A stretch of 1,664 bases of DNA from Escherichia phage 933W. A program made the position numbers. The stretch lies in sequence record X07865.1; one strand, 5' to 3'. Shown here one piece after another: positions 1 through 1,664 of the stretch (position 1 is its first letter; each line of letters opens with the position of its first letter).

Positions 1-1664
1 ATCGCATAGCTCATCGGAACAAGCTCAAGCGGTCTCCGGTCGAGTCCTCATGCGTCCATTATCTGCATTATGCGTTGTTAGCTCAGCCGGACAGAGCAAT
101 TGCCTTCTGAGCAATCGGTCACTGGTTCGAATCCAGTACAACGCGCCATATTTATTTACCAGGCTCGCTTTTGCGGGCCTTTTTTATATCTGCGCCGGGT
201 CTGGTGCTGATTACTTCAGCCAAAAGGAACACCTGTATATGAAGTGTATATTATTTAAATGGGTACTGTGCCTGTTACTGGGTTTTTCTTCGGTATCCTA
301 TTCCCGGGAGTTTACGATAGACTTTTCGACCCAACAAAGTTATGTCTCTTCGTTAAATAGTATACGGACAGAGATATCGACCCCTCTTGAACATATATCT
401 CAGGGGACCACATCGGTGTCTGTTATTAACCACACCCCACCGGGCAGTTATTTTGCTGTGGATATACGAGGGCTTGATGTCTATCAGGCGCGTTTTGACC
501 ATCTTCGTCTGATTATTGAGCAAAATAATTTATATGTGGCCGGGTTCGTTAATACGGCAACAAATACTTTCTACCGTTTTTCAGATTTTACACATATATC
601 AGTGCCCGGTGTGACAACGGTTTCCATGACAACGGACAGCAGTTATACCACTCTGCAACGTGTCGCAGCGCTGGAACGTTCCGGAATGCAAATCAGTCGT
701 CACTCACTGGTTTCATCATATCTGGCGTTAATGGAGTTCAGTGGTAATACAATGACCAGAGATGCATCCAGAGCAGTTCTGCGTTTTGTCACTGTCACAG
801 CAGAAGCCTTACGCTTCAGGCAGATACAGAGAGAATTTCGTCAGGCACTGTCTGAAACTGCTCCTGTGTATACGATGACGCCGGGAGACGTGGACCTCAC
901 TCTGAACTGGGGGCGAATCAGCAATGTGCTTCCGGAGTATCGGGGAGAGGATGGTGTCAGAGTGGGGAGAATATCCTTTAATAATATATCAGCGATACTG
1001 GGGACTGTGGCCGTTATACTGAATTGCCATCATCAGGGGGCGCGTTCTGTTCGCGCCGTGAATGAAGAGAGTCAACCAGAATGTCAGATAACTGGCGACA
1101 GGCCTGTTATAAAAATAAACAATACATTATGGGAAAGTAATACAGCTGCAGCGTTTCTGAACAGAAAGTCACAGTTTTTATATACAACGGGTAAATAAAG
1201 GAGTTAAGCATGAAGAAGATGTTTATGGCGGTTTTATTTGCATTAGCTTCTGTTAATGCAATGGCGGCGGATTGTGCTAAAGGTAAAATTGAGTTTTCCA
1301 AGTATAATGAGGATGACACATTTACAGTGAAGGTTGACGGGAAAGAATACTGGACCAGTCGCTGGAATCTGCAACCGTTACTGCAAAGTGCTCAGTTGAC
1401 AGGAATGACTGTCACAATCAAATCCAGTACCTGTGAATCAGGCTCCGGATTTGCTGAAGTGCAGTTTAATAATGACTGAGGCATAACCTGATTCGTGGTA
1501 TGTGGGTAACAAGTGTAATCTGTGTCACAATTCAGTCAGTTTGACAGTTGCCTGTCAGACTGAGCATTTGTTAAAAAAATTTCGCATGGTGAATCCCCCT
1601 GTGTGGGGCGACTGGTGAAAAATCCTTGCTTGTGATTCATTATCGACACGGGTTCGGTGGTACC

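Follow-up and report, generated by a model that had tools for sequence, protein, structure and literature searches.

A degenerate tRNA-like segment upstream of stx2 in a sequence record of Escherichia phage 933W is probably a garbled copy of the known argN gene

The tRNA genes upstream of stx2 in 933W-type phages

Stx2 phages carry three tRNA genes, and phage tRNAs in general are described as offsetting differences in codon usage (PMC7946995, PMC4631060). According to the AF125520 annotation of phage 933W, the gene order is Q, pR', qut, terminators, the promoter pT, ileZ, argN, argO, a terminator, stxA2 and stxB2. The gene argN is the middle member of the known ileZ-argN-argO cluster, which lies upstream of stx2AB in 933W-type phages. 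ARAGORN recognizes all three genes in the 933W sequence, with the anticodons CAT for ileZ, TCG for argN (a tRNA-Arg of 77 nt) and TCT for argO, and the Rfam tRNA model (RF00005, threshold 29 bits) gives them 72.5, 54.8 and 68.1 bits, respectively. All stem pairs of the 933W argN are standard, and its canonical 77-nt sequence is CCGCCATTAGCTCATCGGGACAGAGCGCCAGCCTTCGAAGCTGGCTGCGCGGGGTTCGAGTCCTCGATGGCGGTCCA. The tRNA-Arg(tcg) call is repeated by ARAGORN in 933W-type loci of IMG/VR. argN is thus a known and ordinary phage tRNA gene.

The genes argN, ileZ and argO may be transcribed together, starting at the annotated pT promoter and/or as part of the Q-antiterminated late transcript. Processing of the argN part would yield a tRNA of 77 nt, with its CCA encoded in the gene, that is charged with arginine. 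Judging from the anticodon, the AF125520 annotation and the codon counts of stx2A, this tRNA probably decodes the rare arginine codons CGA and CGG; the neighbouring tRNAs ileZ and argO would read AUA and AGA/AGG, respectively. The rare-codon counts of stx2A, in which 15 of the 20 isoleucine codons are ATA and which also contains AGA (6), AGG (2), CGA (2) and CGG (3), fit a role of the tRNA cluster in the supply of tRNAs for rare codons. Both stx2A and stx2B are rich in codons of this kind.

The stretch of DNA analyzed here, referred to as the window, comprises the 1,664 nt of sequence record X07865.1. By BLAST against annotated phage records, it corresponds to the tRNA-stx2 segment of 933W-type Stx2a phages. 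Its features are listed in Table 1; the AF125520 annotation was mapped to the window via an offset of 224 in locus L002. A first-pass annotation, made from the sequence of the window only, had seen in the first 58 nt the 3' end of a possibly degenerate tRNA with a non-canonical T arm, and had pointed to the tRNA cluster upstream of stx2 in 933W for comparison. That cluster proved to be the correct reference, as the segment fills the argN slot. On the downstream side, the synteny of argN is seen in the window itself, where the spacer, argO, the terminator and stx2AB are identical to 933W. For the upstream side (ileZ and Q/pR'), which the window does not reach, the order is that of AF125520. The proposed check against an intact 933W sequence gave a normal cloverleaf, with the argN score and the ARAGORN call reported above.

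Table 1. Features located in the window, with their positions, strand and basis
Feature	Position	Strand	Basis and remarks
Probable corrupted copy of argN, tRNA-Arg(UCG)	1..58	+	AF125520 21204-21281; global alignment, shuffle test
Best-preserved argN piece: U8-A9, D-stem 5' strand, argN-specific D loop	7..21	+	Alignment
Anticodon arm and variable region, collapsed remnant	22..37	+	Alignment
T-arm remnant, including the GGTCGAGTCC motif of the first-pass annotation	38..50	+	Alignment; canonical T arm in 933W
argN-argO spacer, 13 nt	59..71	+	Identical to 933W
argO, intact tRNA-Arg(UCU)	72..148	+	ARAGORN; Rfam 68.1 bits; AF125520 annotation; identical to 933W
Hairpin and T run, possible rho-independent terminator between tRNA cluster and stx2A	162..185	+	AF125520 annotation 21385-21408
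stx2A	239..1198	+	100% identical to 933W
stx2B	1210..1479	+	100% identical to 933W
Extra T in T run (TTT vs TT in 933W)	1540..1540	+	Alignment to 933W
STnc100-like RNA, 5' part	1555..1664		Rfam 80.9 bits; cut by the window end
G+C hairpin CCCCCTGTGTGG[AGG]GGCG, 3 bases missing in the window	1596..1610	+	Inside the STnc100-like RNA match

Identity and anatomy of the shortened copy

The start of the window was compared with 933W by affine-gap global alignment; MAFFT, applied to window 1-260 and 933W, misplaced the first 53 nt owing to the many gaps. In the global alignment, window position 1 falls on AF125520 21204, the base preceding argN +1, and the encoded CCA of argN falls on window 56-58. 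The first-pass annotation had supposed that the 5' part of the tRNA lay outside the window. The whole gene is in fact inside it, compressed from 77 to 57 nt by the loss of 20 bases and carrying 4 substitutions. These 24 differences from AF125520 are all within window 1-53. The following 1,486 nt (window 54-1539) are 100% identical to AF125520, with 0 differences. Beyond them, just two discrepancies remain, namely the extra T at 1540 and the absence of 3 nt at 1604.

When aligned to argN, window 1-53 scores 33, and shuffled sequences gave a mean of -22.5 (sd 7.0) with a maximum of 6. None of 5,000 shuffles reached the score of the real segment, and the same result (0/5,000) was obtained with window 1-39 alone. 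Among the three genes of the cluster argN is the best match, as the scores against ileZ and argO are -8 and 3. The suggestion that the segment is derived from a tRNA was thus right, and window 1-58 is argN, the already known tRNA-Arg(UCG) gene, very probably in a form garbled in this record.

Mapping of the differences on the argN cloverleaf indicates that every arm is affected. In the 5' acceptor strand, two doublets are each short by one base. The best-preserved piece (7-21) reads TAGCTCATCGGaACA, and its 933W counterpart is TAGCTCATCGGGACA. The D-stem 3' strand (GAGC) is absent after this piece; it has been lost, together with three further bases, as a 7-nt block (GAGCGCC). In the next piece (22-37), AGCCTTCGAAGCTGGCTGCG appears as AGCTCAAGCGGTCTCC. 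Here the anticodon arm has lost 3 bases, including the G of the anticodon TCG, and the variable region has lost 2. The T arm is reduced from CGGGG-TTCGAGT-CCTCG to (C)GG-TCGAGT-CCTC. The 5' T stem has lost GG and the T loop its first T (CGGGG-TTCGAGT to CGG-TCGAGT), and a G, the last base of the 3' T stem, is missing as well. Two G are missing from the 3' acceptor strand. The motif GGTCGAGTCC, correctly located at 38-47 by the first-pass annotation, is the true argN T arm minus three bases. The non-canonical T arm described there is therefore best regarded as an artefact of the record, since the T arm is canonical in the argN of 933W.

The minimum free energy fold of the segment (-17.8 kcal/mol, z = -2.2, with 7 of 200 shuffles as good) retains a 5-bp acceptor-like stem, in which positions 3-7 pair with 50-54. 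The acceptor/CCA-like terminus that had been recognized at 56-58 is real in the sense that the CCA is present and follows this residual stem. The shortened copy has no closed D stem and no anticodon arm, and its T arm consists of a 2-bp stem with a 6-nt loop. The deletions and substitutions have destroyed the D, anticodon and T arms, which makes ARAGORN and Rfam blind to the tRNA. RF00005 had no match in window 1-68 even at E<=10, and ARAGORN found nothing at 1-58, its sole call in the window being the neighbouring tRNA at 72-148. As it stands, the window sequence stays below the RF00005 score threshold and does not form the cloverleaf; the observation that a canonical cloverleaf cannot be drawn is in agreement with this. 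The accompanying rule that a segment without any tRNA-model hit is not tRNA-derived is, however, misleading in this case, as the homology to argN is highly significant although the window gives no such hit.

The two copies of AGCTCA noticed at 8-13 and 22-27 are present, and had been taken as a direct repeat. The copy at 8-13 is the ordinary, universal U8-A14 D-arm motif, which argO also carries at 80-85. The copy at 22-27 exists only because of the deletions, and no independent sequence of the locus contains it. The repeat was thus rejected as a real element.

Origin of the shortened form

The 933W sequence has been determined twice independently, as AF125520 and Y10775.2. These records do not differ anywhere in the 1,686 nt matching the window, and both contain an intact argN. 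Further loci were collected from IMG/VR by a search made independent of argN, using as anchor the spacer and the 5' end of argO, which are identical in the window and in 933W. In the 50 anchored loci, the upstream gene is full-length and differs by substitutions only, except in one locus (L066), where the anticodon region of the argN slot contains N bases as well as additional bases. The natural allele nearest to the window form among these loci is 24 edits away. The 933W-type allele is present in 21 loci, with stx2AB downstream in 20 of them. The stx2AB sequence present on the contig is 100% identical to that of the window in 11 of these loci (in 7 of them over the full 1,244 nt), and argN is intact in all 11. 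Apart from L066, with its N bases, argN is intact in all 20 sampled loci carrying stx2.

The remaining 29 anchored loci have another full-length allele, with 12-14 substitutions and designated group B, in the argN slot. The T loop of this allele reads C(C/T)CGGGT versus TTCGAGT, and its 3' acceptor strand ends with AA, resulting in C1.A72 and C2.A71 mismatches. ARAGORN misses the gene in 3 of the 5 group B loci tested. The Rfam scores obtained, 22.2 and 26.4 bits, are below the threshold, and the flanking ileZ and argO genes score 72.5 and 70.1 bits. None of the 29 group B loci has stx2 downstream of argO. In one of them, L127, the genes after argO look lysis-like when their ORF translations are inspected by eye, a putative assignment. 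Unlike ileZ and argO, argN has thus decayed in a recurrent allele that is seen only in stx2-less prophages.

The shortened form was found nowhere else. Its specific k-mers are GGTCTCCGGTCGAGTCCTCATGCGTCCA and CATCGGAACAAGCTCAAGCGGTCTCC. Window-specific strings of 28 and 26 nt, and one of 27 nt spanning the 3' end, gave no exact match in IMG/VR, in GTDB genomes (one per species) or in contigs of JGI metagenomes, and a canonical 31-mer matched more than 120 IMG/VR contigs. Such exact-pattern scans miss relatives with one further change, but mismatches are tolerated by BLAST, which was applied to phages and to E. coli genomes. Upstream of window position 40, no alignment was obtained with any of 5,426 complete E. 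coli genomes or with any of the 272 matching phage records (from a collection of 50,697 phage records). Window 1-45 alone had no match in the E. coli genomes, and in the phage collection only a chance match to a Gordonia phage.

The distribution and the nature of the differences are informative. As many as 24 differences are crowded into 53 nt, and the adjoining 1,486 nt have none (Fisher p = 2e-34). The net loss amounts to 12 G, 6 C, 2 T and no A. The chance of at least 18 G/C among 20 lost bases is 0.013, and this bias is only moderately significant because argN itself is G+C-rich. When homopolymers are collapsed, the edit distance drops from 24 to 14, which means that many of the losses are shortened runs. 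The affected stretch has 66% G+C, belongs to a strongly self-pairing tRNA gene and is located right at one end of the record. The only other discrepancies, an insertion in a T run and a deletion in a CCCCC...GGGG hairpin, are confined to the last 125 nt. Both are unique to this record, and none of 247 phage records matched window 1480-1664 with an identity of 99% or more.

Band compression in G+C hairpins, miscounted runs and ends covered by a single pass are typical of gel-read sequencing. The record is presumably the 1987 gel-read 933W stx2 entry X07865, and the end of the window, GGTACC (a KpnI site), fits a cloned restriction fragment. The reading that we prefer, with a probability of roughly 90%, is that the aberrant 57-nt form is an error-laden reading of argN at the extreme end of the record, and not biology. 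About ten separate small deletions and 4 substitutions would have resulted from band compression, under-called runs and single-pass coverage of the end; such is the physical cause that we infer, along with the provenance of the record. The form occurs in no independent determination, and its deviations are biased toward deletion and fall in structured, G+C-rich or homopolymeric DNA and at the ends of the record.

The KpnI-site end of the window, which suggests a cloned restriction fragment, would also suit deletions that arose in the laboratory while the cloned fragment was propagated, perhaps as M13 or plasmid subclones, and that were afterwards read correctly. Damage of this kind would account for a unique form with perfect flanks. 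We consider it improbable, as instability or slippage usually gives one deletion between repeats and not about ten of 1-7 nt plus 4 substitutions in 53 nt. Moreover, the scattered and G/C-biased losses of single bases, together with the indels in the T run and the hairpin at the other end, point to misreading.

A natural and heavily decayed argN pseudo-tRNA in a rare 933W-like phage has equally little chance of being the explanation. Low-scoring argN alleles do occur in nature, as group B indicates (22.2-26.4 bits), and the loss of argN function is tolerated in some prophages. However, the known decayed alleles are full-length, carry substitutions only, belong to stx2-less loci and differ from the window form by 29-30 edits. 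The latter derives from the 933W allele, as seen from TCGAGTCCTC, and adjoins 1,486 nt of perfect identity. The intact argN in 11 of 11 contigs with a window-identical stx2AB and the absence of the shortened form from the databases searched also speak against natural decay, and it is not plausible that natural mutation placed 24 changes in 53 nt and left the adjacent 1,486 nt untouched.

A variant of these possibilities is that the 57-nt form is real DNA in a phage or clone of the 933W lineage, in which a burst of about ten deletions wrecked argN and left the stx2 operon untouched. This could happen, for instance, by error-prone repair at the hairpin of the tRNA gene, a scenario that we hold to be no less improbable. 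If such a form were real, argN would be dispensable for an Stx2a phage.

The 3' halves of tRNA genes are common att sites, and the BLAST alignments begin only at window position 40. The segment could for these reasons be viewed as a scar of tRNA integration or recombination, or as a chimeric junction with foreign or vector DNA. Such an origin is very improbable indeed. The locus lies within the late region of the phage (Q, pR', ileZ-argN-argO, stx2) and not at a prophage end, the segment follows argN colinearly over the full gene, 5' half included, and the order of its neighbours is normal. A chimera formed with known E. coli or phage DNA was rejected, as window 1-45 has no match elsewhere in the collections of phages and E. 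coli genomes apart from the chance one mentioned above, and shows significant colinear homology to argN. A functional arm-less tRNA or tRNA-like RNA, for which the 5-bp acceptor-like stem, the CCA and the z value of the fold could be invoked, is just as far-fetched, as the surviving stem is a leftover of the true acceptor stem, the anticodon arm and a closed D stem are missing, the T stem is limited to 2 bp with a 6-nt loop, no covariance-model match is obtained at E<=10, and the form is conserved nowhere.

The first-pass annotation had offered three identities for the segment, namely an unusual functional tRNA, a decayed pseudo-tRNA or a remnant of an integration site. None of them holds for the gene at this locus, which in independent sequences has a normal 77-nt cloverleaf; the non-canonical structure is not a biological feature of argN.

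Comparison with related tRNA genes and sequence records

A misreading of argN at the end of the record has practical consequences. The apparent degenerate tRNA upstream of stx2 in this record would not be biology, and it is unfit as a reference for that region. A modern 933W sequence is preferable for the non-coding ends of the record, among them the 3' end with its STnc100-like RNA.

The closest counterpart of the window copy is the argN gene of 933W (AF125520 21205-21281), VT2-Sakai and Min27. Like it, the window copy occupies the slot after ileZ and 13 nt before argO, and, as in 933W and other Stx2a phages, it is located upstream of the terminator and stx2A. The window copy and the 933W argN share the D-loop signature TAGCTCATCGGxACA, the T-loop core TCGAGTCCTC and the 3' end TCCA, and their flanks are 100% identical. 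Unlike the 933W argN, the window copy cannot form a cloverleaf, a difference that is restricted to this record.

The group B genes of stx2-less lambdoid prophages (IMG/VR loci such as L125, L127 and L123) are comparable in position, as they occupy the same slot between ileZ and argO. With tRNA scores below the threshold and an altered T loop, they constitute a real case of what the first-pass annotation had imagined. However, they are full-length (77 nt) and still give weak tRNA matches (22-26 bits), unlike the window form, which derives from the 933W allele through many deletions and is 29-30 edits from group B. A natural degenerate allele was thus rejected as the identity of the window segment, group B being a different, substitution-only and full-length form in a different genomic context.

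The nearest parallel to the shortened form itself may be found in early manual records, in which gel compression and miscounting of runs caused losses in G+C-rich self-pairing DNA and in homopolymer runs, as in the window. The pattern of the window, with errors at both ends and a long perfect middle, also appears similar to that of early gel-read records. Unlike a typical compression miscall, one of the losses in the window is a block of 7 nt (GAGCGCC), which is larger than usual.

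A decayed argN allele and its relation to stx2

A decayed form of argN, the tRNA-Arg(UCG) gene lying between ileZ and argO, is natural and recurrent, being present in 29 of the 50 IMG/VR loci anchored on the spacer and the argO 5' end. This allele is of full length with 12–14 substitutions, has C(C/T)CGGGT as T loop and carries the mismatches C1.A72 and C2.A71. It scored 22.2 and 26.4 bits with the Rfam tRNA model (threshold 29), and ARAGORN, run on five of the loci, made no call in three. On either side of it, ileZ and argO are intact, with 72.5 and 70.1 bits for the same model.

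Among the 50 anchored loci, stx2 was found downstream of the decayed allele in none of the 29 and was present in 20 of the 21 with intact, 933W-type argN. Retention of argN may thus be restricted to stx2 phages, as read from this split. Alternatively, the split may be a mere lineage effect.

Matches to sok, the antitoxin RNA of the hok/sok type I toxin-antitoxin system, were also observed in stx2-less prophage loci (107–120 bits). In L125, L134 and L123 they precede the tRNA cluster by about 4.5 kb.

Positions of decayed argN alleles and sok matches in IMG/VR contig loci
Feature	Locus	Coordinates
Decayed argN allele	L125	10739-10815
Decayed argN allele	L127	1711-1787 (about)
Decayed argN allele	L123	8990-9066
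Decayed argN allele	L134	5895-5971
Decayed argN allele	L138 (example locus)	
sok match	L125	6243-6418
sok match	L134	1210-1385
sok match	L123	4487-4658

The argN copy of a stx2-carrying IMG/VR contig (L066:4568-4656, minus strand) contains N bases and about 12 additional bases in the anticodon region, and is reported by ARAGORN as an 89-nt 'tRNA-???'. This copy may result from faulty assembly of the same structured region, or the insertion may be genuine.

Ends of the record and the stx2A reading frame

A short way 3' of stx2B, positions 1555-1664 of the window strongly match STnc100, an sRNA family of Rfam (80.9 bits, threshold 47), the match being truncated by the window end; a full-length copy is found in the stx2-less locus L125 (11587-11776, 123.6 bits). 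Two further indels are specific to this record: TT is read as TTT at 1540, and 3 nt are lost at 1604 within CCCCCTGTGTGG[AGG]GGCG, inside the first hairpin of the STnc100 match, where the family consensus has additional bases. Among 247 phage records, none carries either indel, which suggests that both non-coding ends of the record are unreliable. The window stops exactly at a KpnI site (GGTACC, 1659-1664), as would be expected if the record came from a restriction fragment that had been cloned.

The mechanical ORF list includes a 382-residue frame (50-1198, plus strand) that crosses argO and the terminator and continues in frame into stx2A because stop codons are absent. By annotation, stx2A begins with the ATG at 239 and has 319 codons plus stop.

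Position 37 of argO

The argO anticodon loop reads CTTCTGA in the window (103-109), with G37 located 3' of the UCU anticodon, as in 933W. It reads CTTCTAA in L125 (about 10860-10866) and L123, A37 being the base in the stx2-less loci with decayed argN. The Rfam score is 68.1 bits with G37 (window and 933W) versus 70.1 bits with A37. In tRNAs for codons starting with A, such as AGA, position 37 is usually an A modified to t6A, and the G37 of the stx2-phage argO is therefore unexpected.
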